From: a virus
Reading direction: 5' to 3' (one strand)
DNA length: 64,000 nucleotides
IMG/VR virus record: IMGVR_UViG_3300045988_094428
Location: 1 to 64,000 of that record
Part shown: positions 8,776 through 31,088 of the stretch, piece by piece
How positions within the stretch are numbered: position 1 is the first letter of the stretch
Layout of the letters: every line of letters begins with the position of its first letter
Program-made: the position numbers and the translations under genes
The notes under the pieces: model-generated
Told to the model about the DNA's origin: nothing
The model's input: only the letters and a program-made list of their open reading frames with translations
The model's database searches: none

Positions 8776-9883
8776 GAAATGGTTGCCTGACCTTAAACAT
8801 ATCGTGAATTGCTGGAATATCCTTAGAGATTAACGTACCAACTATATGCGGTGACGTAATATAGGGCAGACAGGTTCTCTGATATGGTGAAAATCGTTAA
8901 TATTGGACAATCAGCAACCAAGCATCTAGCTTTGCTAGATGAAGGCTCAACGACTAAGTGCGATATAATATAAGTTAGATTAGAATTTATATAGAATGGA
9001 GGTGAAAATATGAGACATAAAAGTACATTAACAGAAAATGATAGCAATTTAGTAATTGAAATGTATAATAGTGGTATGTACCTAAAAGATATAGCCAGTT
9101 CTTTTCATTGCAGAGTGACTAAGATTACTGATATTTTACATGACGCTGGTATTAGAACAAACAATGAAGGGAAATATCTAAATCGGCTTGCAAATACAGC
9201 ATACTTTGACGTAATTGATAGCGAAGTAAAAGCGTATCTCCTTGGTTTTATAACCGCAGATGGTTCGGTTGGAGCAAGGACAGGGAGGAATTTTGGTAAA
9301 ACACTAAGGCTTGAACTTCAAGAGTCTGACGAGTCTATTTTGGATTTGCTCTCAAGCGAATTGAATATTAAAAGCAAGAAATATTATCACAATAAGAATG
9401 GGAAAATTACTGTTTCTGTTGGTATCAGTTCTACAGAGATAGTTGATTCTCTTGAAAAATACGGCGTGGTTGCTAATAAGACATACGTTCTCGAATCTTT
9501 ATTCATGGACTTACCAGATGATTTGTTGAGGGCATATTTACGTGGCCTTTTCGACGGTGATGGTAGTTTATATATTTCTAGCGGCATTGTTCATGGGAAC
9601 TTCACGGAAGGATTAGAGCATATCGTTGTGCAGTTCAGAGATATAATAAACTCCAAAATTGGCATCGAGAATACCACAAAGATTCAGTGCAATAATGGTG
9701 CATATCATGCTGTGTGGAATGGCTCTAATTGCGTAAAGCTATGTGAATATCTTTATAAGGACGCAAAATATTTCTTGCCGAGAAAATATGAATTTGCAAC
9801 TACAGCTATAAAGTCTAACTAATTCTAACTTATATTAAAGATATAGTCTGACCTTATTGGAAACAGTAAGATTAACAAAAATG
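8776..9883 (+). mobile_element. Putative group I intron (1108 nt) interrupting the phoH Walker A codon; carries a LAGLIDADG homing endonuclease ORF
   Basis: Exon 1 ends in U (8775), the element ends in G (9883). Joining 8775 to 9884 restores GTYGSG-KSFLSMQMGL, a canonical Walker A. The downstream ORF continues with PhoH motifs (ARGEGSAVGYLPGEFEQKV, VVDEAEDLTESQLRLVGTRLGQNSRIFFSGDYKQ). Confidence 0.5.
9010..9822 (+). CDS. LAGLIDADG homing endonuclease (intron-encoded)
   Basis: Two LAGLIDADG motifs (YLLGFITADGSV, LRGLFDGDGSL); own RBS GGAGGTGAAAAT-ATG. Confidence 0.7.
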   Translation: MRHKSTLTENDSNLVIEMYNSGMYLKDIASSFHCRVTKITDILHDAGIRTNNEGKYLNRLANTAYFDVIDSEVKAYLLGFITADGSVGARTGRNFGKTLRLELQESDESILDLLSSELNIKSKKYYHNKNGKITVSVGISSTEIVDSLEKYGVVANKTYVLESLFMDLPDDLLRAYLRGLFDGDGSLYISSGIVHGNFTEGLEHIVVQFRDIINSKIGIENTTKIQCNNGAYHAVWNGSNCVKLCEYLYKDAKYFLPRKYEFATTAIKSN

Positions 9884-10402
9884 AAATCATTTCTAAGTAT
9901 GCAGATGGGATTATATGGTGTAAATGAGAAAGGCTATCAGTCCAAGATTCTTGGTGTACGTGAAGCGCGTGGCGAAGGTAGCGCAGTTGGTTACTTGCCC
10001 GGAGAGTTTGAGCAAAAAGTTGGTGATTTCTTTAAGCCTTTGGAGCAACAGCTAAAAGGCGGTGAGTTTGAGTTGCAGAGTCTAAAGCAGCGTGGTGTAC
10101 TTGATGTTCAGATTCCTTATTATCTAAAAGGAACTACTTACGATAGCACCATTATGGTTGTTGACGAAGCAGAGGATTTGACGGAATCGCAGTTGCGTTT
10201 GGTTGGCACACGGCTTGGTCAGAACTCAAGAATTTTCTTTTCTGGTGACTATAAGCAGTCACTAATCAATAAGACTATTAGCAATCCGCTTGTTAAGATG
10301 TGTGACGAATTTAAGGGTAGCCCTAATTTTGCTTGCGTATTTCTTGACACCGATGTTCGTAGTGAAGCATCTAAGATGTTTGCTACTTTGTTTAAACAGT
10401 AA
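9884..10402 (+). CDS. phoH: PhoH-like ATPase exon 2 (remainder of Walker A and the PhoH core)
   Basis: KSFLSMQMGL... then PhoH-family DEAQ-like box VVDEAEDLT and GDYKQ motif. Confidence 0.55.
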   Translation, partial: KSFLSMQMGLYGVNEKGYQSKILGVREARGEGSAVGYLPGEFEQKVGDFFKPLEQQLKGGEFELQSLKQRGVLDVQIPYYLKGTTYDSTIMVVDEAEDLTESQLRLVGTRLGQNSRIFFSGDYKQSLINKTISNPLVKMCDEFKGSPNFACVFLDTDVRSEASKMFATLFKQ

Positions 10403-11180: not shown

Positions 11181-11209
11181 TTGACAAATTTACATTTTTA
11201 TGGTAAAAT
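11181..11209 (+). promoter_or_regulatory. sigma70-like promoter
   Basis: TTGACAaatttacatttttaTGgTAAAAT. Confidence 0.5.
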
Positions 11210-11467
11210 ATTAGTGTTCAAGGAGGTGCGAGAACCATAAGGAAAAGCGGCTTTTTGACCACTTTGATGAATTTTGGAGTTAGTGAAAAAGATGCAACCG
11301 ATTTTGCTAACGAGGTTATCAACAGAGGTGGCAAGATGAGTTATGAGGGTGCTTATCATATTTGGGAAACCGAAATGATTAAGGCCGGAATCGCATCTAC
11401 AAAAGATAAGATGGTTGCAAAAGATACAATCAGCAATAAATTATTTGGATAAAAGGAGTATCTAATT

Positions 11468-12967
11468 ATGGCAAATTTTGCAAATGCAGTTCGTGAATCT
11501 GCACGAATGACCACTACCGCAAATGGAGCAAAGTGCTACAATACCACTGGTAGCAAGATGCTTGACCTGTTCTCTACCGCTGGCGGTATGCGCACTCGAA
11601 TCAATGATGTTCGTGATGCGTTCTCTGCGGCATGGAACGAGAATCCTGAGCTGGCAATTAAGCTGGCTTTCTATTGTCGTGACGTGAGAGGTGGACAGGG
11701 TGAACGTGACGTTGCACGTGAGATGCTTCGCTGGGTCGCAGAATATCATCCTTCCACTATGCGTAAGAATTTGAAGTTCTTGCCTGAGTATGGTCGTTGG
11801 GACGATATTTACGTCTTTGTTGGCACTAAGGTCGAGAATGACGTATGGCAGATGGTTCGTGAGCAGTTCACCGAGGACATCAAGAACGTCAATTCCGGTA
11901 AGTCCTGTTCTCTGATGGCTAAGTGGCTGAAGTCAGTCAATACTTCCTCTAAGAAGTCTGTCGAGTTTGGTCGGTTGACCGCTCGTAAGTTGGGACTGTC
12001 TTATATGCAGTACCAGAAGACTCTGGCAAAACTGCGTAAGTACATTAACGTGACCGAGGTTAATATGTCTGCAAACAAGTGGACTGATATTAACTACGAA
12101 GCTGTCCCTTCTAAGGCTATGACTAACTATCGTAGCGCATTCGCCCGTCACGACCACGAAGGATTTACCGACTATATCAACGCTGTTAAGGCCGGAGAAA
12201 AGACTATTAAATCTAACACTTTGTATCCTTATGACCTTGTACATCAGTACATGGGCGGCGGTGGAATGGTTTCTTATCGCTCCGGTTACTACAACTGCGG
12301 TGGTTTGGCAGATAAGGAAGATGCTGTTGTTGAAGCACAGTGGAAGGCATTGCCCAACTACATTGACGGAAACCATAACGTGATGGTTATGGCAGATACG
12401 TCTGGTTCTATGCGTGGTCAGCCCATCGAATCCGCTCTTGGCCTTGCAATGTATTTTGCAGAGCGTAATAGTGGCCCTTATAAGAATCTGTTTATGACCT
12501 TTAGCTCTCATCCTTGCTATGTCACTCTGGATGAACAGAGTATGCTCGGCAACTTGAAGAAGGCCGCAAAAGCTGACTGGATGGGTTCTACCAACCTTGA
12601 AGCTGCCTTTGCTAAGATTCTCAAGACTGCGACTGACAACCACCTGACTGATGACGAGTTGCCCAAGGCACTTGTTATCATCTCGGATATGCAGTTTAAT
12701 AAGGCGTTGATTCAGGGCGACAACTACTTCGACTCTATGAAGAATATGTATGCCGCACACGGTTATACCCTTCCTCATGTTGTGTTCTGGTGCGTAAATG
12801 CTTGGGCTGGTTCTACTCACCATAATAACTACAACGACTACGTTACTACGTTTAGCGGTAATGCCGCAAGCACTTTCCGTGATGTTCTCGGAACTATCGG
12901 TTATAATGCTTACGAGGCTATGTTGAAGGTTCTGAATGGTGAGCGTTACGCGCAGATTCATGCCTAA
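11468..12967 (+). CDS. vWA-domain protein with a ~300-aa N-terminal region that may be TROVE/DUF2828-like
   Basis: MIDAS motif VMVMADTSGSMRG in the C-terminal half. The N-terminal similarity to the TROVE module of Ro60-like proteins is tentative and recalled, not computed. Confidence 0.4.
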   Translation: MANFANAVRESARMTTTANGAKCYNTTGSKMLDLFSTAGGMRTRINDVRDAFSAAWNENPELAIKLAFYCRDVRGGQGERDVAREMLRWVAEYHPSTMRKNLKFLPEYGRWDDIYVFVGTKVENDVWQMVREQFTEDIKNVNSGKSCSLMAKWLKSVNTSSKKSVEFGRLTARKLGLSYMQYQKTLAKLRKYINVTEVNMSANKWTDINYEAVPSKAMTNYRSAFARHDHEGFTDYINAVKAGEKTIKSNTLYPYDLVHQYMGGGGMVSYRSGYYNCGGLADKEDAVVEAQWKALPNYIDGNHNVMVMADTSGSMRGQPIESALGLAMYFAERNSGPYKNLFMTFSSHPCYVTLDEQSMLGNLKKAAKADWMGSTNLEAAFAKILKTATDNHLTDDELPKALVIISDMQFNKALIQGDNYFDSMKNMYAAHGYTLPHVVFWCVNAWAGSTHHNNYNDYVTTFSGNAASTFRDVLGTIGYNAYEAMLKVLNGERYAQIHA

Positions 12968-14600: not shown

Positions 14601-14699
14601 ATATGGGGTATTAGTCTAACTGGACAAAACATCACTCTCCTAAAGTGAATTTCTCCGTTCGAGTCGGGGATGCCCCACCAAAATTTTTCTCAAAACCAC

Positions 14700-14728
14700 T
14701 TGACAAATCGCAAAAAGTATGATAGAAT
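14700..14728 (+). promoter_or_regulatory. sigma70-like promoter
   Basis: aaaaccacTTGACAaatcgcaaaaagtaTGaTAGAAT. Confidence 0.55.
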
Positions 14729-15213
14729 ATAGGTGTTCCAAGGGGAATAGAAAGAAAGGTATATTGCATGAAATATGAGACTGTAAAAATGCACGAGTCT
14801 ATTCCTATGACACCGAAACGTCTTTATGAGTGGGCTGTTGCAAACGGTGTTGAAGATTGTCAGATGTATTTTCCGGCAGACGAGCTTGAATGAGATGTTT
14901 ATTTGACTATGGATGATATGTGTAAAGAACATCGTGATTTTGATAAGAACAAGGAAATGGTAGTCAATATTCGTAGGTAATTGTATGATGGTTTTTGTCT
15001 ATGAACTGAAATATGTTGATAAACGCAAATTAGTCCCAGTCACAGAGAGTCCAAAGACGAGGACAATCGCTACGGTGATTAACAAAGTTACTGGAAACGA
15101 TGTTAAGCGTTTGTATAATCGCTTGAAGCGAAGTGGCAATATGCCACAGATGGAATATCTAAAAGATGGAAATTATCGTATTATGTATATGGCACTGCCT
15201 AATGGGTTGAAGT

Positions 15214-16056
15214 TTGACCCATTCTATAAGGACGGGATATATTACAGAGGAAGGAGCGTATTTGACCGTGATGACACTTGATGACAGAATGAAAACTTAT
15301 TATGAGGGTGCATATCGTGTTTATCTGACACGGCGTATGCCTGTCATTATCCGAATCGACTCTCGTGCTGGGCACACCTTTACAAAGAATCTGAAAAAGC
15401 CCTTTGATGTAGTTTTCACTGCAACGATGCAGGATACAATGAAGTATCTGTGTGAAAACATTCAGGGTTGTGTAATTGGTTATACGCAGTCTGACGAGAT
15501 TACTTTGTGCCTTGTTGATTATGACAAGCTGGAAACCGATGCTTGGTTTGGTTATAATCTAAACAAACTGGTAAGCCTCAGTGCATCAATGGCTACGTTG
15601 GCATTTAATAAGTGCTTTGAACGTAATGCCAATAGAACCCTCACTAAGATGGCATTGTCCTCTGGCGTGAATAAGTTTGAAATTGACGCTTACTCTGCTA
15701 CATTGGCAAAGTGTAAAGAAAAGGGTTTGTGTTTCGATTCTCGCGCCTTTAATATCCCGAAGGAAGAGGTGTGCAACTGCTTCTTATGGAGACAGCTTGA
15801 CGCTTCTCGAAACAGTATTCAGGCGGTTGGTCAGGCTAATTTTTCGCATACCGTTCTGAATGGTAAGAATACTTCCGAGATTCAGGATATGTTGATGAAC
15901 GAGAAGGGTATCAACTGGAATAATCTTGCTACAGAATTGAAGCGTGGCTCTTGTTGTGTGCGAGATGAAGGTGGCTGGACTATCGACCATGAGATTCCTA
16001 AGTTCTCTGGCGATGGTCGTGATTACATCGACAAGCTGATTTATATCGGTGAATAA
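15214..16056 (+). CDS. Thg1-like protein (tRNA-His guanylyltransferase / 3'-5' polymerase family). True start probably ATG ~15274.
   Basis: VIIRIDSRAGHTFTK matches the Thg1 RIDGRxFhkF motif; GYTQSDEITLCL matches the Thg1 GQSDE motif. Confidence 0.6.
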   Translation: MTHSIRTGYITEEGAYLTVMTLDDRMKTYYEGAYRVYLTRRMPVIIRIDSRAGHTFTKNLKKPFDVVFTATMQDTMKYLCENIQGCVIGYTQSDEITLCLVDYDKLETDAWFGYNLNKLVSLSASMATLAFNKCFERNANRTLTKMALSSGVNKFEIDAYSATLAKCKEKGLCFDSRAFNIPKEEVCNCFLWRQLDASRNSIQAVGQANFSHTVLNGKNTSEIQDMLMNEKGINWNNLATELKRGSCCVRDEGGWTIDHEIPKFSGDGRDYIDKLIYIGE

Positions 16057-16083
16057 ATTTTAAAAAATATTTTCCAAACCCCT

Positions 16084-16111
16084 TGACAAATGACAAAAAA
16101 TTTGATATAAT
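16084..16111 (+). promoter_or_regulatory. sigma70-like promoter
   Basis: ccaaaccccTTGACAaatgacaaaaaatttgaTATAAT. Confidence 0.55.
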
Positions 16112-16136
16112 AAGGGTGTCAAGAGGAGGTGGTTGA

Positions 16137-16703
16137 ATGGCTACACGATGGTATGATTAGGTCTATCTTCCAAATCATCCGAGGGCAGGAACGAACGGAA
16201 ATGTATTTGTCCATGTAATTGTTGCTGAACAAAAGATTGGAAGATACCTGAAGCCGGAAGAAGTTGTTCATCATATCAACATGGATAAGCATGATAATCG
16301 ACCAGAAAATTTATTGGTTGTCGCTACAAATAGTGACCATGCGGCAATTCATAATGGATGTAACTATGAATTGGATAGTGATGGTGTGGCACATTCAATA
16401 AAGAAAGCGTGCTTTTGTAAGGTATGTGGAAAGATTATTTCTTATGGTTCTGAAATGTGTATTGATTGCTGGCATGAATTTTTGAACAAAAATAGTGCTC
16501 CACATAAAATAGTCGATGGACATTGCATAATTATAACACGTGATGAATTAAAATATAAGATACGCCATAAGTCGTTTGTCGGTATCGGCAAAGAATTTGG
16601 TGTCTGTGACAATACGATAAGAAAATGGTGTAAAAAGTACAACCTCCCTTTTAGAACAAAAGATATAAAGAAATATACAGATGAAGAGTGGGTGAGTGTT
16701 TAA
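16137..16703 (+). CDS. HNH homing endonuclease with an in-frame TAG at codon 8 (16158-16160)
   Basis: MATRWYD-TAG-VYLPNHPRAGTNG...VHHINMDKHDNRPENL is the classic HNH N-terminus and HNH motif, continuous across the TAG. Strong RBS AAGAGGAGG. The C-terminal ~60 aa is shared with the 17348-18100 ORF. Confidence 0.6.
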
Positions 16704-16898
16704 CACCCACTAATATACGTCCTTAGTGTAACGAATAGCACGAAAATCTCCAAAATTTTTAGTAACAGTTTGACTCTGTTAGGACGCGCCAGTTAGACTT
16801 TGTTTGGTTAAGTTAAACATCAATAGCTAGTCTATGTTGGTGAGTTAAAAACCAAGTTCGTGCGCACGAATTTCTTGCGGGAGCAAGGTCGTTTATAT

Positions 16899-16973
16899 GC
16901 GCTTATCGTTCAATGGATAGGACAAAACTCTTCTAAAGTTTTTATGTGGGTTCAATTCCTACTAGGCGTACCA
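16899..16973 (+). tRNA. tRNA-Arg (anticodon TCT), CCA encoded
   Basis: Acceptor GCGCTTA/TAGGCGT, D arm GTTC/GGAC, anticodon arm AAACT-CTTCTAA-AGTTT, T arm GTGGG-TTCAATT-CCTAC. Confidence 0.7.
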
Positions 16974-16974
16974 C

Positions 16975-17060
16975 AGACGCATACAGCAATCCATAAATTT
17001 TGATGGTTTAAAAAGAATGCTTAAAACAATCTTTTACGGTTCGATTCCGTTCTGCGTCTA
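16975..17060 (+). ncRNA. tRNA-like element, identity unresolved
   Basis: Acceptor-like pairing AGACGCA/TGCGTCT; T8A9; T arm ACGG-TTCGATT-CCGT. No convincing D/anticodon arm by hand; 85 nt. Confidence 0.3.
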
Positions 17061-17137
17061 ATTTTTAGTTATTCTTTATCTTTTTCTGAATCTGATAGAT
17101 ACGAACAGCAACACTTTCTTTGTTCGCGCCACTAATT

Positions 17138-17212
17138 GCGGATATAGTTTAGATGGTTAGAACGCCACACCGAAATGTGGAGACGTGGGTTCGAGTCCCA
17201 CTTATAGTCGTG
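17138..17212 (+). ncRNA. tRNA-like element, probably a pseudo-tRNA
   Basis: Canonical D arm (GTTT-agatggtta-GAAC) and T arm (GTGGG-TTCGAGT-CCCAC). The anticodon stem CCACA/TGTGG encloses only 6 nt. The acceptor stem does not pair. Confidence 0.3.
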
Positions 17213-17220
17213 TCTAATAT

Positions 17221-17293
17221 GCCCGGTTAGTCAAGTTGGCTAAGACGAGTGATTCTCAATCACTAGGCGGCAGTTCAATCCTGCCACCGGGTA
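17221..17293 (+). tRNA. tRNA-Glu (anticodon CTC), no encoded CCA
   Basis: Acceptor GCCCGGT/ACCGGGT, anticodon arm AGTGA-TTCTCAA-TCACT, T arm GGCAG-TTCAATC-CTGCC. Confidence 0.6.
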
Positions 17294-17298
17294 CTTTA

Positions 17299-17330
17299 TG
17301 GTCGAGTAGCTCAGTTGGTTAGAGCAGTAG
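17299..17330 (+). ncRNA. Truncated tRNA 5' fragment (acceptor + D arm), directly upstream of the PD-(D/E)XK endonuclease gene
   Basis: GGTCGAG-TA-GCTC-AGTTGGTTA-GAGC-A-GTAGA... but no matching 3' half (no CTCGACC) within 1 kb. Confidence 0.4.
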
Positions 17331-17347
17331 ATAAATGGGGTATGAAT

Positions 17348-18100
17348 ATGGTAAATTCAAAGATGAAAGGCAATATTGCAGAGTCGCGTATTTTATATGA
17401 ATTTGTTTAGAGAGGAATACCAGTTTCAATACCTTACGGCGATAATGAACGCTATGATATGATAGCGGAATTTAATGGAAAGCTGAATAAGATACAGATA
17501 AAGTTCTGCAATCAACAAATAGTTGATGGTTCGATAAGCTGTCCATGTTCTAATATAGTAAATCCATTAACAAAAAGTAAGCATAGAGAATTATATGTTA
17601 ATGATGTTGATTATATGGCATTTTACATATATGTATGGGATGTTGCTGTTATAATTCCAACAAGTTACATAGGGAATAGGATTCAGATAAAGATTAGAAA
17701 AGAACGTGCAAAGAACAATCAAACTACAGCTTCTACATTTGTTGATGACTTTACTTTTGATAAAATTGTTGGAGCAGATGTTCGTAATGTGATAGAAGAA
17801 CAACAAAATGTATATGAAAAAGCATATAATAGATGTGTTGATTGCGGATGTGCCATATCGGATAGGGCTGTGAGATGTTTAAGGTGTAGAAACTTGAAGC
17901 AATATGAAGAAACGGCAAATCCGAATATGATAGATAGAGACACGCTTAAATCCATGATTAGAAATATGCCATTTAAGCATATCGCATCTATATGTGGAGT
18001 TTCAGATAACTGTATTAGAAATTGGTGTAAAAGATATAATCTTCCATATCGTACATCTGACATTAAGAAATATACAGATGACGAGTGGAGTGATGTATAA
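17348..18100 (+). CDS. PD-(D/E)XK (Hjc/archaeal-resolvase-like) endonuclease with C-terminal domain shared with the HNH protein; in-frame TAG at 17408-17410
   Basis: GNIAESRILYEFV-TAG-RGIPVSIPYGDNERYDMIAEFNGKLNKIQIK matches the E..V...L...G..V..P..D...YD.I.E..GK...IQ.K nuclease core across the TAG. C-terminus ...NCIRNWCKRYNLPYRTSDIKKYTDDEW matches the 16137-16703 ORF. Confidence 0.5.
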
Positions 18101-18239
18101 TTTTTAGCTAATTACCAAAACAATATCCCACTGACATAATAATACCCATTTTTTCGGTTTGGCTAACAGCGCATAGCTATAAAAGTCTAGGATTATTGGA
18201 TAGGCTAACAATGACTGCTGGAAAGACAGCAATTTATAT

Positions 18240-18316
18240 GCGGCAGTAGTTCAACTGGATAGAACAATCGGCTACGAACCGATAGGTTGCGAGTTCAAGT
18301 CTTGTCTGCCGTACCA
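18240..18316 (+). tRNA. tRNA-Arg (anticodon ACG), CCA encoded
   Basis: Acceptor GCGGCAG/CTGCCGT, anticodon arm ATCGG-CTACGAA-CCGAT. Confidence 0.7.
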
Positions 18317-18438
18317 GATAAATGAGTCTCAAATTACGCTGGACAAAGGGGAGCCTTTTATGGGTGACTGTTATGACAGTGACCCTGATTATCGGTGACG
18401 ATACTAACTCATGAGAGTGCGTAAGCCGACATTTATAT

Positions 18439-18524
18439 GTGCGTGTATCCGAATTGGCATAGGAGCTGCTTTGAGATGGCAGTGTCGAAAGACATTGTGG
18501 GTTCAAGTCCCACCATGCACACCA
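18439..18524 (+). tRNA. tRNA-Leu (anticodon GAG), class II with GAAA-capped variable arm, CCA encoded
   Basis: Acceptor GTGCGTG/CATGCAC, anticodon arm CTGCT-TTGAGAT-GGCAG, variable arm TGTC-GAAA-GACA, T arm GTGGG-TTCAAGT-CCCAC. Confidence 0.65.
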
Positions 18525-18527
18525 AAA

Positions 18528-18649
18528 TACAGGATGGTTTCAATGGTAAAACATCGCCAAAATAAGAATGTGTCTATGTAGACATAAGCCGCAATTATTT
18601 TTTCTTAAAAGCCAAGACGAAGATGTTGGTTCGACCCCAACTCCTGTAT
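18528..18649 (+). ncRNA. 122-nt tRNA-like RNA 'A'. Perfect acceptor, D and T arms, but ~50 extra nt (with a TGTCTA-TG-TAGACA hairpin) in place of a normal anticodon arm.
   Basis: Acceptor TACAGGA/TCCTGTA (7/7), D arm GTTT-caatggta-AAAC, T arm GTTGG-TTCGACC-CCAAC. Internal segment cannot be folded into a 5-7-5 anticodon arm by hand. Confidence 0.4.
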
Positions 18650-18656
18650 TTATTAT

Positions 18657-18732
18657 GCGAGATTAACTCAACTGGAAGAGTGCTACCCTTACAAGGTAGA
18701 AGTTACAAGTTCGAGTCTTGTATTTCGCACCA
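18657..18732 (+). tRNA. tRNA-Val (anticodon TAC), CCA encoded
   Basis: Acceptor GCGAGAT/ATTTCGC, anticodon arm CTACC-CTTACAA-GGTAG, T arm ACAAG-TTCGAGT-CTTGT. Confidence 0.7.
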
Positions 18733-18818
18733 TACGACAGTTTATAAGCTAAACAAGTCCTGCCGTGGACAAAACAAAAACTTAATTTGCGGTTGAGTGA
18801 CCTTAAACTCACCATTAT

Positions 18819-18935
18819 GGCTGTGTAGCTCAATAGGCTAGAGCGCGTAAAACCTATCTATTTTAGATAGTAACAGCTACACATTTTTCCATTATAAGGA
18901 CGAGGTTTATGGTTCGAGTCCATACGCAGCCACCA
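18819..18935 (+). ncRNA. 117-nt tRNA-like RNA 'B'. Same architecture as A, with a ~50-nt insert containing a CTATCTA-tttt-AGATAG hairpin.
   Basis: Acceptor GGCTGTG/CGCAGCC, D arm GCTC-aataggcta-GAGC, T arm TATGG-TTCGAGT-CCATA, CCA encoded. Confidence 0.4.
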
Positions 18936-19327
18936 AAAATCTAAAAAAGAAGGGAAATGAATCCGATGCAGTAGATTGATAATAATAATCCTATGGTTTT
19001 CTTTCAAATGTTGGGTGAAGTTGCCGGTGATAACATCATGAGCAAGATTTCCCGACTAAAGATTAGTGAAGAAAATGGAATTGTTACTTTATATCTAAGA
19101 GATGAACGTGAACCGTTTAACGATAGTGAACTTAGACAGCTAAGATACATCTTAGAAAGATGGTATGATATAATTTCTTTTAGGCGTGAAGATAGGCTTA
19201 CTATGTTAGATATGAAGGTAAGAAAATAACCCTCCTTTATTTTTATATATAAAAAGACACATCCAGCAAACTTTTATTAAATTTTGAGTAGCCTTATGAT
19301 TCAATTTTTAATGTGTCTTTTAGATTT

Positions 19328-19415
19328 GCCAGTGTAGTTCAGTTGGTAGAACGCGGGTTTTGTAATCCCGATGCCGAAAGGGTTCTCGCAGGTTCGAGTC
19401 CTGTCACTGGCTCCA
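19328..19415 (+). tRNA. Class II (long variable arm) tRNA with atypical anticodon region CGGGT-TTTGTAA-TCCCG (anticodon TGT by canonical numbering; contains GTA)
   Basis: Acceptor GCCAGTG/CACTGGC perfect, D arm GTTC/GAAC, 17-nt variable arm, T arm GCAGG-TTCGAGT-CCTGT, CCA. Anticodon stem has a U-U at its base, so the loop is effectively 9 nt. Confidence 0.45.
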
Positions 19416-19416
19416 T

Positions 19417-19492
19417 GCCACTTTAATTCAGTAGATAGAATGATGCGTTCGTATCGCATACGTCGTAGGTTTGATTCCTACAGGTGGCTCCA
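19417..19492 (+). tRNA. tRNA-Thr (anticodon CGT), CCA encoded
   Basis: Acceptor GCCACTT/AGGTGGC, D arm ATTC/GAAT, anticodon arm ATGCG-TTCGTAT-CGCAT, T arm GTAGG-TTTGATT-CCTAC. Confidence 0.7.
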
Positions 19493-19630
19493 ATCGCACC
19501 TATGCTGTGGTAGAATAGGTATAGGCAAGTATTTTAACTACCGTGTCCATAGAGTTAATGGACTTGGGAGGTACTGACAAGACAGAAGAGCAAGTACCAT
19601 GCACGTGGGCGGGTATTCGTGCTTTCATTT

Positions 19631-19718
19631 GCGCTCGTAGCTAAGTTGGTATAGCACCGGACTTTTAATCCGGGGTGGATTATTCCTATCGTGGGTTCAA
19701 GTCCCACCGGGCGCACCA
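19631..19718 (+). tRNA. Class II-architecture tRNA with anticodon TTT (Lys-reading anticodon on a long-variable-arm scaffold), CCA encoded
   Basis: Acceptor GCGCTCG/CGGGCGC, D arm GCTA/TAGC, anticodon arm CCGGA-CTTTTAA-TCCGG (perfect), 17-nt variable arm with GGA/TCC stem, T arm GTGGG-TTCAAGT-CCCAC. Confidence 0.5.
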
Positions 19719-19866
19719 CGCGGTAAGTAGTTTTCGAGTTGCGACTATTGTAGCTGGTATTCGTAAAAAATATAGTAAATGCGTGATATGACAGTATGCC
19801 GCGTTTGTGTCAAGGAACAAGCACATTGCGGATAAACCGATGACTGCTGGAAAGACAGCGTTTTAT

Positions 19867-19943
19867 GTTTCCATAGCTCAGTTGGTTAGAGCGCAATCCT
19901 GATAAGATTGAGGTCGAATGTTCAATTCATTCTGGAAACACCA
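19867..19943 (+). tRNA. tRNA-Ile (anticodon GAT), CCA encoded
   Basis: Acceptor GTTTCCA/TGGAAAC, D arm GCTC/GAGC, anticodon arm CAATC-CTGATAA-GATTG, T arm GAATG-TTCAATT-CATTC. Confidence 0.75.
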
Positions 19944-19955
19944 CTTATTTATTAT

Positions 19956-20046
19956 GTGGTAGTACCCAAGAGGTTGAAGGGGCTTGCTTGGAAAGCAAGT
20001 AGGCGGCGTAAGCCGTGCAGGGGTTCAAATCCCTTCTACCACGCCA
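19956..20046 (+). tRNA. tRNA-Ser (anticodon GGA), class II, CCA encoded
   Basis: Acceptor GTGGTAG/CTACCAC, anticodon arm CTTGC-TTGGAAA-GCAAG, 19-nt variable arm GGCGGC-gtaa-GCCG, T arm AGGGG-TTCAAAT-CCCTT. Confidence 0.7.
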
Positions 20047-20173
20047 CGACCGTAAAGATGAACAAAATGGAGCATACGGTGTTACAAAACCGTCTCGGAG
20101 TGATTGTATCACAAGGGGATTTAACGGAATATATGCTCGATGCGTGGTTCGCAAAACCTAAATTGCAAATATG

Positions 20174-20247
20174 CGTCATGTGCCAGACGGCTAGGCGAGA
20201 GACTGCAAATCTCTTTTAGATTGGTTCGACTCCAATATGACGCTCCA
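20174..20247 (+). tRNA. tRNA-Cys (anticodon GCA), CCA encoded
   Basis: Acceptor GCGTCAT/ATGACGC perfect, anticodon arm AGAGA-CTGCAAA-TCTCT, T arm ATTGG-TTCGACT-CCAAT. Confidence 0.7.
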
Positions 20248-28075: not shown

Positions 28076-29734
28076 ATGGCAAATTATACAATTTACCATC
28101 TTCATACCATGCTAAGTAATGCAGTAACAAATATCGACTCAGTTACTACGTTTAAGCAATACATAAAAAGAGCACAAGAGTGCGGTATGACCGCACTTGC
28201 TTTTTCAGAGCATGGTAATATTTTTGAATGGGTTCACAAGAAAGACGCTGTTGAAGCCGCTGGTTTGAAATATATTCATGCAATGGAGGCATATCTTACA
28301 GAGCGCATTCCAGATGAGGGCGAAGAAAAAATTCGTGATAACTACCACTGTGTTTTGATTGCCAAAAACTGGGAGGGTGTTAAGGAACTTAACCGTTTAC
28401 AAGGAAAGGCATTCAATAGAACAGACGGTCATTACTACTACGCACCGAGAATTACATTTGCTGAATTATTTGCTACAAGTAATAATATCATTATTACCAC
28501 AGCTTGTGTTGCATCTGCATTATGCAAAGGAACAGAAAGCGCGAAGGCGTCATATCTTAGATTTCTGACGAGACATAAAGATAGATGCTTCTTGGAAGTT
28601 CAGCATCATAATACGCAAAAGCAGTTTGAGTATAATAGATATTTGGCAAATCTGTCTAAGGAAACTGGTCTTAGATTGATTGCTGGTACTGATACGCATT
28701 GTTTAAACGCAGAGCATGAACTTGGTCGTAGCGCACTACAGCGTGGCAAGGGCGTTTTTTTCGATGATGAAGTCGGTTGGGATTTGACATGGAAAACCTA
28801 CGATGAACTTGTCGAGGCATATAGAACGCAAGATGCTCTCAGTGAAGAAGAATATATGTCTGCAATCAATAACACAAATGTTATGGCAGATATGATTGAA
28901 ACCTTTGAACTTGATAGAAGTTTCAAGTACGCAAAGATTTACGATGATGGTGAAAAAGTCCTCCGTGAAAAGTTGTTTGCGCCAGAAACTATCGAGCCGA
29001 TTATCAAGGAGGGATTTTCAAGAGAAGAAGTAACTGCGCGTTTGGAGCAGGAAATTGACACTTTTAAGGCTTTGAACGCAACTGACTTTATTCTTCTCGA
29101 AGACCATATTGTGCGTTGGGAGCATTCGCATGATATGTGGCAAGGCCCTGCGCGTGGAAGCGCCGCTAGTTCCTTGGCTTTGTACGCTTTGGGCGTGACA
29201 GAAGTGAACCCATTGAAATATGGATTTTATTTCTGGCGATTCATGGATAAATCTAAGTACAGCTTGGCTGATGTTGATATGGATAACTCGGCAAAAGACC
29301 GTGATAAACTGAAGTTCTGGATGTTGAACGACCACCTAGACCTTCCGAATGTCAAGACTTGTGAAATTATTACGTTCAACACAATCGCATTAAAGGGCGC
29401 AATTCGTGATATTGGACGTGGATTGGATATGCCTCTCGATGAGGTTGATACGATTGCAAAAGCTGTTCATGAAGTAGCAGTCGATGAAGAAAAGATTGTT
29501 ACTATTGATGATAGCTGGCGTAAGAAATATCCAGAGTTGTTCAAGTACGTTGATATTGTTATTGGCACTATCGTTAGCATCGGTTCTCATCCGTCTGGTG
29601 TTGTTGTTTCCGACCATGACATTGAATCGGAATTTGGCCTGTGCTATCTAAAAGATGACCCCTATCCTGTCTCCTGCATCAATATGAAGGAACTTGATTC
29701 CCTTAATTTTACCAAACAGGATGCCCTTGGGTAA
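28076..29734 (+). CDS. dnaE: DNA polymerase III alpha (DnaE-like), N-terminal portion (PHP domain through the finger region); reading frame leaves the polymerase around 29711-29734
   Basis: PHP-domain start YHLHTMLSNAV...ALAFSEHGNIFEW. C-terminal end ...CINMKELDSLNF aligns to the DnaE LLKMDF box. Confidence 0.6.
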   Translation: MANYTIYHLHTMLSNAVTNIDSVTTFKQYIKRAQECGMTALAFSEHGNIFEWVHKKDAVEAAGLKYIHAMEAYLTERIPDEGEEKIRDNYHCVLIAKNWEGVKELNRLQGKAFNRTDGHYYYAPRITFAELFATSNNIIITTACVASALCKGTESAKASYLRFLTRHKDRCFLEVQHHNTQKQFEYNRYLANLSKETGLRLIAGTDTHCLNAEHELGRSALQRGKGVFFDDEVGWDLTWKTYDELVEAYRTQDALSEEEYMSAINNTNVMADMIETFELDRSFKYAKIYDDGEKVLREKLFAPETIEPIIKEGFSREEVTARLEQEIDTFKALNATDFILLEDHIVRWEHSHDMWQGPARGSAASSLALYALGVTEVNPLKYGFYFWRFMDKSKYSLADVDMDNSAKDRDKLKFWMLNDHLDLPNVKTCEIITFNTIALKGAIRDIGRGLDMPLDEVDTIAKAVHEVAVDEEKIVTIDDSWRKKYPELFKYVDIVIGTIVSIGSHPSGVVVSDHDIESEFGLCYLKDDPYPVSCINMKELDSLNFTKQDALG

Positions 29735-31088
29735 ACAATCCTGCCCAAGTAAAAGCGAGTTATATGCTGGGAAGTGCTTAGAGCCTCAGTTACCAAAGTG
29801 TGACAATACTGAGGATTGCACAATCAGCAGGCACGATAAGTTCTGCCTCAACGACTATGGGAATATCCCAACTGTCATAGAGTGATTTATGACAGTAACC
29901 TCGCTGAAATGATATAGTCTGGTCTGCATTTAATAGTGCAGAGTCAAGCAGAAATGACTTGACATTTTGTTTGCTTTCTGATATAATATATGTAAAGGTG
30001 GTGATTGTATGGCGAAAGCAAGATATACGAAAGTGTAGTTCTATAATGAAATACTCCGGTTGTATAAAGAGTATGGCGAGATAAACCAAAATATCTACGC
30101 AAAACACACAAGTCTTGATGTTAGCTTTAGACAGTATTGTAATAAGTACGGTGGATTAAAGCAGATATGTAAAGACCTTGGAATAGAGTATAGCTATTAT
30201 AATGAAGTTTCCAAAGAGCAAGCGCTTGAACGTGGGCGAATGTTGCTAGAGCAATATGGATTCTTGCGAAAGGAACTTTGTCAAAAGAACGGAATATCAT
30301 CTAGTACAGTTGCGAAACTGTTTGGAAGTTATCAAAACTTTTATAAGGAAGTTGGATATAACACAGACTTTCGTAGAGATGTTCCAGTTGAAGCTGTAAG
30401 AAAAGATATACTCGAATTTATAACCGAAACTGGTTCTAAGTCAATTACAGACTACAAGAAAGCGCATCGGTATTCACAATCTATAATTGATAGATGTGGT
30501 GGGTGGCATACAATTCTTGTTGATATTGGAGTAGAACCAAAGAAATGGCGTAATGGTAAAGACAATATAATCAAACAGACACGTGAATTGATAAACAAAT
30601 ATGGTTATCTGTCAAGTAAACTAATAGAAGATAATTGCGATTTTACTTTGCAAGCGTTGGAGTATTACTTAGGAAACGCTGATAGTATTTGCAAATATTT
30701 CGGTAATGAGCATTTATTTGACTACGGCAGAAGTAGTCAAGAACTCAGAATAGCAGAGTTACTCGAAGATATTCTAGGTGTCGGGAATTTTTCACGTGAA
30801 GTTGCATGGGATTGGTTGTTGTCAGACAGCGGCAATCATCTGTATGTGGACTTTTATATTGATTCTTTAAAAGTTGCGATAGAATATGACGGTGAGCAAC
30901 ACTACAAATACGTTGAAAGGTTTCATAGAAATTATGATGGGTTTCTTGAATATCAGCGTAGAGATAATATAAAGAGTTCGTTGCTTGCAGAACATAACAT
31001 CAAACTTATTAGAATATCATATACGCAAGAAATATCAGAAAAATATCTAAGAGATATATTAAGCAAACAAAATTAACAAAATTACGTG
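29711..31088 (+). mobile_element. ~1.35-kb intervening sequence splitting dnaE (putative group I intron, boundaries approximate), carrying an endonuclease ORF and an internal promoter
   Basis: The DnaE alignment resumes in the next ORF (xDNVGIINE... vs TLTIINW...; AIMQEPQMAFVQEFCGYDFLRADKLRKIIGKK vs the DnaE YQEQVMQIA...GADLLRRAMGKK). Internal promoter gactTGACAttttgtttgctttctgaTATAAT at 29959-29988. Confidence 0.4.
30060..31076 (+). CDS. Endonuclease with C-terminal DUF559/Vsr-like PD-(D/E)XK domain, encoded inside the dnaE intervening sequence
   Basis: VDFYIDSLKVAIEYDGEQHY...RDNIKSSLLAEHNIKLIRI matches the Vsr-like restriction-endonuclease fold common in free-standing and intron-encoded HEGs. 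Confidence 0.5.
   Translation: MYKEYGEINQNIYAKHTSLDVSFRQYCNKYGGLKQICKDLGIEYSYYNEVSKEQALERGRMLLEQYGFLRKELCQKNGISSSTVAKLFGSYQNFYKEVGYNTDFRRDVPVEAVRKDILEFITETGSKSITDYKKAHRYSQSIIDRCGGWHTILVDIGVEPKKWRNGKDNIIKQTRELINKYGYLSSKLIEDNCDFTLQALEYYLGNADSICKYFGNEHLFDYGRSSQELRIAELLEDILGVGNFSREVAWDWLLSDSGNHLYVDFYIDSLKVAIEYDGEQHYKYVERFHRNYDGFLEYQRRDNIKSSLLAEHNIKLIRISYTQEISEKYLRDILSKQN

Follow-up and report, generated by a model that had tools for sequence, protein, structure and literature searches.

The window analysed here is a stretch of 64,000 nucleotides (nt) of viral DNA (positions 1 to 64,000 of IMG/VR record IMGVR_UViG_3300045988_094428), and the 1108-nt insert at 8776..9883 on its plus strand, on which all window features given below lie, is very probably a mobile group I intron placed between the Walker A Gly and Lys codons of the phage gene phoH. 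The gene is interrupted at exactly this point, far beyond chance. A preliminary description of the locus, made from the letters of the sequence alone, had proposed a probable group I intron with a homing endonuclease, and the sequence-level tests that could be run were positive, although the Rfam matches stay below the gathering threshold, self-splicing itself being a prediction.

The host gene is a predicted phage PIN-PhoH gene (PhoH2-type), interrupted between its Walker A Gly and Lys codons. Exon 1 (8089..8775) encodes the PIN domain, a linker and the first six Walker A residues (GTYGSG), and, as read from the sequence, the GGT codon of the final glycine closes at U8775. The open reading frame (ORF) at 8089..8790 has the C-terminus AILGTYGSGEMVA; the preliminary description was right in ending the upstream ORF with GTYGSG, although the stop does not follow immediately, as four intron codons (EMVA) are read before the TGA at 8788-8790. 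Exon 2 (9884..10402) opens with the Walker A Lys-Ser (AAA TCA TTT CTA AGT ATG CAG ATG GGA TTA, giving KSFLSMQMGL) and contains the remainder of the PhoH ATPase domain. Joining 8775 to 9884 yields GTYGSGKSFLSMQMGL, in which the canonical GxxxxGK[ST] motif is intact as GTYGSG|KS. The predicted spliced product is a PIN+PhoH protein of 401 amino acids (aa) with a PIN_4 domain at its N-terminus and a Pfam PhoH match at residues 198-395 (profile positions 2-200 of 205, E 2.3e-30); this match runs unbroken across the junction, just as the textbook P-loop followed by PhoH motifs had been described for this join. The product also matches PHROG 2765 'PhoH-like' (2.5e-72), and the uninterrupted PhoH of Clostridium phage D-1873 is collinear with it in a single aligned piece over residues 3-398, with 41% identity.

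The intron boundaries were taken from intron-less alleles. A back-translated search of IMG/VR recovered five contigs (L003-L007) in which phoH is uninterrupted, 1203 nt long, collinear with exon 1 and 99-100% identical in protein sequence to the spliced gene. At the junction these contigs read ...TCTGGY|AARTC..., with GGY|AAR contiguous and zero extra bases, and the genes flanking phoH show 92-95% alignment to them on both sides. Because L003-L007 are contiguous there, the insert is exactly 8776-9883, is precisely absent from homologous alleles and is polymorphic among close phages; it extends from G8776 to the terminal (omega) G9883, so that both the coordinates and the final G given in the preliminary description hold. 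The predicted spliced junction is ...GGGUCUGGU|AAAUCAUUUC..., with ACCTACGGGTCTGGTAAATCATTTCTAAGT as the junction 30-mer. The core flank haplotype of this 30-mer is common to all three intron-bearing loci examined, and intron-less DNA carrying it was not found in IMG/VR. Exact searches of IMG/VR returned neither the 5' junction nor any intron-less allele bearing the flank haplotype seen with the intron, and searches of the same database with the back-translated endonuclease and with an exact 26-mer of the intron core were also without match. As these searches for the intron-bearing form were empty, IMG/VR holds the intron-less form only of the window's phage group, while the intron-bearing form is present in ENA and Logan assemblies. 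A megablast search of the region against GenBank phages gave zero matches.

The non-coding parts of the insert can be folded into a candidate group I ribozyme whose core lies in two parts, 8799..8966 and 9821..9883. P1 is formed by the end of the 5' exon (GGGUCUGGU, 8767-8775) and the internal guide GCCUGACCU (8785-8793), with a wobble pair, U8775·G8785, at the splice site. The P1 loop (GAAAUGGUU, 8776-8784) is also a strand of P10, in which the 3' exon (9884-9893) pairs with the first nine intron bases. P3 (8799-8804/8961-8966) and P4 (8809-8814/8912-8917) are followed by P5 (8820-8822/8905-8907) and its extension, consisting of P5a (8829-8835/8895-8901), P5a' (8836-8840/8885-8889), P5b (8842-8850/8855-8864, with a GUGA loop) and P5c (8867-8870/8878-8881), and then by P6 (8918-8919/8944-8945) and P6a (8923-8930/8934-8941). 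In P7, A8950 and G8952-A8956 pair with 9844-9849 (UAGUCU) and leave C8951 bulged, and P3 and P7 form a pseudoknot within the P3-P9 core. P8 (8968-8978/9825-9835), whose first strand is the 5' part of a feature at 8968..8987, carries the endonuclease ORF in its loop; an alternative, longer pairing of its 3' strand from 9821 would overlap the endonuclease stop codon. Downstream lie J8/7 (UAAAGAUA, 9836-9843), P9 (9853-9859/9864-9870, with a GAAA tetraloop) and a 13-nt tail that ends in G9883; in all relatives G is likewise the final intron base and AAA follows directly. Features of a G-binding site are present, in that G8952-C9848, which we take by analogy with the Tetrahymena P7 to be the guanosine-binding pair, adjoins the bulged C8951, and J8/7 contains AAGAUA; these positions have high posterior probability in the Rfam alignment. 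When the ORF is swapped for a tetraloop, a ribozyme of ~275 nt remains, and the minimum-energy fold alone of this ORF-less construct recovers P4, P5, the P5a-c extension, P6a, P8 and P9. The P1-P9 fold that the preliminary description had expected of an intron can be laid out as P1, P3-P9 and P10, with covariation.

This covariation was evaluated on a family of related introns. Over about 150 nt, the 5' core shares 70-73% identity with an intron in the endolysin gene of Staphylococcus Twortvirinae and with one in gyrB of Bacillus phage Internexus; the matching DNA is unannotated and splits the endolysin and gyrB genes, respectively, and both are phage group I introns. Nine homologous ribozymes (that of the window, those of ENA/Logan loci found through the endonuclease, and the Staphylococcus and Bacillus introns) were aligned from P3 to P7, and 89.1% of the cells were paired, compared with 31-44% when the 3' partners were slid. 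Compensatory changes occur in 24 of the 44 pairs, and all seven pairs of P5a are at 100% pairing. With strands defined by hand, P1, P3, P7, P8 and P9 are complementary in 9/9 introns despite their differing sequences; P7, for example, switches from GACUA/UAGUC to GACCA/UGGUC (U-A to C-G), and the P1 guide tracks the preceding exon sequence in the nine introns, which are inserted in different genes. A covariance model built from this alignment gave 162 matches in 100 sources (99 fetched viral loci and the window). A heuristic P1/Walker-A scan of 150 introns of the family misses the window's own P1 owing to its U·U mismatch, and nothing was concluded from that scan.

The general Rfam model of group I introns also gives two matches here, both below its gathering score. 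In a search of the whole window, RF00028 matched 8730-9001 at 43.1 bits and 9702-9870 at 42.0 bits (each E ~1e-7), and the match is split into two halves because the 833-nt ORF-bearing P8 loop divides the ribozyme. The two matches cover the conserved elements AAUUGCNGG, CAAUCNGC, UCAACGACUA and AAGAUAUAGUC at high posterior probability, and their aligned blocks correspond to the classical elements AAUUGCUGG, CAAUCAGC, UCAACGACUA and AAGAUAUAGUCU, followed by the GAAA-capped hairpin. At the gathering threshold, Rfam reported only tRNAs in the window, the intron being visible with E-value reporting only. Among eight related loci RF00028 matched just the two closest, L012 and L014, with no match at E<=0.001 on L001, L002, L017, L018, L020 and L023, which suggests that the model is insensitive for this intron family.

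Several points speak against the assignment to group I or weaken its support. In the Rfam check suggested in the preliminary description both halves were matched, but each match lies under the gathering score of 50. P1 contains a U8772xU8788 mismatch, P2 is absent from the window's clade, and the window, L012 and L014 lack P7.1/P7.2, with just 4 nt between P7 and P3'. When the best 150 of the 162 model matches were aligned, 92.0% of the cells were paired (34-45% when slid) and 40 of the 44 pairs covaried, but this alignment was fitted to its own model, so that the pairing figure is somewhat inflated. Moreover, a PDB sequence search with the endonuclease gave zero matches, so that no relative of solved structure is detectable by sequence.

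Since P2 and P7.1/P7.2 have been lost in this clade, splicing might need help from a protein; the insert would then still be a group I intron but would depend on the LAGLIDADG protein as a maturase, or on a host or phage RNA chaperone. The relatives L017, L018, L020, L023 and L145 do keep P7.1/P7.2 hairpins between P7 and P3', where the window, L012 and L014 have only those 4 nt, and certain LAGLIDADG proteins, I-AniI for example, also serve as maturases. Nevertheless, the catalytic core, the P5abc-type extension and the P9 GAAA loop are intact and highly conserved, and P2 and P7.1/P7.2 are dispensable for splicing in many compact group I introns of bacteria; we therefore regard such a dependence as unlikely.

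Selection was compared between the window and the intron-bearing loci L012 and L014. The phoH exons are 82-88% identical in nucleotide sequence, with a ratio of nonsynonymous to synonymous substitution rates (dN/dS) of 0.01-0.02 and a dS of about 0.8-2, and the endonuclease ORF is 80-85% identical with a dN/dS of 0.05. The non-coding ribozyme segments, to which dN/dS is not applicable, are 91-98% identical, and the non-coding intron RNA is thus more conserved than adjacent synonymous sites. The 18 substitutions in the ribozyme segments of the three loci comprise 13 in loops, 4 that keep a pair (C-G to U·G, U·G to U-A, A-U to G·U) and 1 that breaks a pair, which opens the second-outermost pair of P1. 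By these comparisons, exons, endonuclease and ribozyme are all under purifying selection.

These data also bear on whether phoH might simply be disrupted or split by an endonuclease cassette that does not splice, leaving a PIN-only protein and possibly a PhoH fragment without a P-loop. Public gene calls do show three separate ORFs at the locus, namely a PIN fragment of 233 aa, an unnamed ORF of 270 aa and a PhoH fragment of 167 aa, and the frame of exon 1 does end four codons into the insert. However, the cut runs through the middle of the P-loop and deprives each fragment by itself of a Walker A; both exons are under strong purifying selection in the intron-bearing lineages (dN/dS 0.01-0.02 at a dS of about 1 or more); and the non-coding flanks of the endonuclease ORF exceed synonymous sites in conservation and adopt a group I core supported by covariation. 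A gene broken in this way is accordingly very unlikely, and a free-standing endonuclease in a split gene was rejected on the same exon constraint and covarying core. As both halves of a gene cut within its P-loop are strongly constrained, they are presumably rejoined, and this is the best indirect evidence for splicing of the intron in vivo; we infer that the phoH halves would be spliced together in infected cells, since the constraint is sensible only if they are rejoined.

The intron encodes a 270-aa ORF (9010..9822) in the P8 loop, preceded by a Shine-Dalgarno sequence, GGAGGTG, at 8998-9004, 5 nt before the ATG at 9010; the LAGLIDADG ORF with its own ribosome-binding site noticed earlier is therefore confirmed. 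The product has two LAGLIDADG motifs, GFITADG (residue 79) and GLFDGDG (residue 179), each with a conserved acidic residue, as well as a short N-terminal helix-turn-helix. It matches Pfam LAGLIDADG_3 (47.5 bits against a cut-off of 22.5, 2.2e-12), Pfam LAGLIDADG_1 (26.1 bits against a cut-off of 23.1, 1.7e-05) and PHROG 4645 'endonuclease' (2e-55), and is a predicted intact, monomeric, double-motif LAGLIDADG homing endonuclease. A total of 471 endonuclease homologues were recovered. Six clusters at 85-95% identity, of which two have 58 and 47 member sequences, show the endonuclease to be frequent in public metagenomes.

LAGLIDADG domains also occur in inteins, and PhoH is documented as an intein host with insertion at its P-loop (PMC4760082, PMC3322345), so that an intein has to be weighed for this insert, together with a group II intron. 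The intein was excluded because the insert is not in-frame (stop at 8788-8790), the ORF is equipped with a ribosome-binding site and a start codon of its own, and Pfam found no Hint or intein splicing domain; the group II intron was excluded because Rfam gave no group II family but matched the group I model. We consider the chance of either to be negligible. Inteins share with the phoH insert the Walker A landing region of P-loop nucleoside triphosphatases (NTPases), but they are in-frame and spliced at the protein level, whereas this insert has stop codons and a ribozyme fold.

The exon sequence around the insertion site carries a further mark of mobility. A patch of 42 nt (8749-8775 and 9884-9898, or -27 to +15 around the site) differs from the intron-less L003-L007 at 10-14 positions, i.e., 24-33% compared with 2-6% for phoH overall; for L007, 14/42 positions differ in the patch and 26/1164 outside it (Fisher exact p = 5e-12). 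Every change in the patch is synonymous, and among them is an AGT/TCT serine switch, unreachable by single synonymous steps. In the last 27 nt before the site the window agrees with L012 at 26/27 positions, while elsewhere the two genes are 15% different; in L014 the patch is shorter. On this pattern, the mosaic patch that moves with the intron is a co-conversion footprint of homing, to which selection of endonuclease-resistant intron-less alleles or selection on P1/P10 pairing may contribute as well.

A mechanism can be proposed from these features, with catalysis, splicing in vivo and endonuclease cleavage all deduced from sequence. The pre-mRNA would fold into the ~275-nt ribozyme with the endonuclease ORF looping out of P8, and the internal guide at 8785-8793 would pair with the end of exon 1 to form P1 and its U8775·G8785 wobble. 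An external guanosine bound at the P7 pair G8952-C9848 would attack after U8775, the first nine intron bases would pair with the start of exon 2 in P10, and the terminal G9883 would then enter the G-site, leading to exon ligation and an mRNA for the 401-aa PhoH with an intact P-loop. During co-infection, the LAGLIDADG enzyme may cut intron-less phoH at the sequence coding for GSG|KS, and repair would copy in the intron together with some tens of bases of the adjoining exon sequence.

Homologous introns with related endonucleases were found at the Walker A Gly|Lys position of other genes and clades. They include a second phoH clade, represented by L017 (GSG|KT), and a third, more divergent phoH clade at the same site, L018 and L021-L024 (GTG|KD, GSG|KD). 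As a separate observation, the rebuilt Walker A of L018 and L021-L024 is GxxGxGKD, with Asp in place of the expected Ser/Thr. In addition, an AAA_24 ATPase gene on a metagenomic phage contig (L020) has an intron at 1753-2867, GAYGCG|KTTT, whose spliced product matches AAA_24 at 1.3e-29, and a RecA-like 'DNA-repair' gene of Staphylococcus phages Romulus and Remus (L145) has one at about 1310-2730, GLTGSG|KSTF. All Walker A junctions read GGT|AAA. A second site within phoH is also used: in the IMG/VR loci L082 (about 1690-3020), L039, L109 and L057, phoH has an intact Walker A, and a related intron with a LAGLIDADG ORF, the endonucleases being 29-41% identical to that of the window, is located at a G(F/Y/A)LPG motif. 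In a rough neighbour-joining tree without support values, the clusters of enzymes follow the target site and not the host gene: the AAA_24 enzyme falls within the group of phoH Walker-A enzymes, and the LPG-site enzymes form a clade of their own. This grouping is a lead, not a result. It was proposed that, because the coding sequence of the Walker A Gly|Lys recurs in unrelated P-loop NTPase genes, the intron/endonuclease lineage homes to this DNA (GGT|AAA) and jumps between such non-orthologous genes, a suggestion for which we see the chances as evenly balanced. Six other IMG/VR loci (L046, L036, L123, L087, L093, L108) have 4-9 separate ribozyme-model matches within a few kb, which suggests multi-intron genes or intron-dense regions.

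The closest described relative is the intron of Romulus and Remus (Silviavirus), whose RecA-like gene has been listed as split by a group I intron (PMC7497331). In our comparison, the Romulus_081 endonuclease is homologous to that of the window (31% identity over 98% of the protein), and the two introns are alike in ribozyme core type and Walker A position; they differ in the RecA-like host gene, in the hairpins kept between P7 and P3' and in the P5 extension, and Romulus is a cultured Staphylococcus phage, whereas the window probably derives from an uncultured gut phage. The Twortvirinae endolysin (lysK-type amidase) and Internexus gyrB introns have a like P3-P7 core, with all helices alignable, but other host genes and insertion sites; the former has an annotated AP2 domain protein and helicase ORF fragments with no LAGLIDADG ORF, and the latter has no endonuclease. 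In the classical phage introns, such as T4 td with I-TevI and SPO1 DNA polymerase with I-HmuI, the intron is inserted at a codon that is highly conserved and essential for catalysis, a peripheral loop carries the endonuclease ORF, and homing co-converts flanking exon sequence. The phoH intron resembles them in all three respects, although the T4 td and SPO1 endonucleases are of the GIY-YIG or HNH kind and that of phoH is a double-motif LAGLIDADG enzyme.

Elsewhere in the window, the covariance model pointed to a second group I intron, missed by Rfam, at 29733-31086 (+), which splits dnaE (DNA polymerase III alpha) at K-x-D-x-L-G|L. Its 5' splice site follows U29732, P1 is CUUGGGU with GCCCAAG, the terminal G is 31086, and the join GGG U|UG GAU gives ...DALG-L-DNVGIIN. 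The model match lies at 29748-29857 (65.2 bits). Here the ribozyme core is contiguous, and a 338-aa endonuclease-like ORF (30060-31076) with PHROG 559 and 9084 matches and a Vsr-like 'IEYDGEQH' motif is found downstream of P9. The dnaE of MT835481 appears uninterrupted. The window also has an array of about 15 tRNA genes (14605-20244, +). The neighbours of phoH at 7134-8039 and 11468-12967 (+) resemble RNA-metabolism genes and include an AAA_33 kinase + HD domain protein and a 499-aa DUF2828/DUF7788 protein, and related loci have an adenylosuccinate synthase gene upstream. Between them, window positions of about 11188-11216 correspond to 5992-6248 of L003, where L003 and L004 hold ~255 nt extra and L006 aligns straight through.

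As for the phage itself, an identical endonuclease protein in the same gene order is present in human-associated metagenome assemblies (ENA ERZ28662038 and others), the nearest DnaE is that of an uncultured phage from human faeces (65%), followed by those of Clostridioides and large Bacillus phages (about 45%), and related IMG/VR contigs reach about 150 kb. The cohorts from which the contigs stem include ENA ERZ28662038 and ERZ28621762. On the basis of these assemblies, DnaE relatives and contigs, the window probably belongs to an uncultured, Firmicutes-infecting gut phage about 150 kb in size.

Literature searches for phoH with intron or homing endonuclease gave co-mentions only and no paper that describes phoH as the host of a group I intron; phoH is also absent from a 2025 survey of introns in Bastillevirinae. 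Of the 2283 GenBank phage records that match PhoH, just two show the match at two separate positions. Elements of this kind are familiar, but phoH did not appear as a group I intron host in the searchable literature.

The gene phoH is a widely used phage marker, and such introns would, wherever present, distort metagenomic phoH counts and alignments; at least two phoH insertion sites are used in uncultured phages. The near-identical alleles with and without the intron, together with the sharply bounded synonymous patch, offer a natural snapshot of homing and co-conversion in human-gut phage populations. Moreover, a LAGLIDADG family whose targets are the Walker-A coding sequences of several genes would supply a compact set of natural specificity variants for the study and engineering of target recognition, and, if the proposed jumps between P-loop genes are real, introns would join inteins in using the P-loop as a general landing pad.

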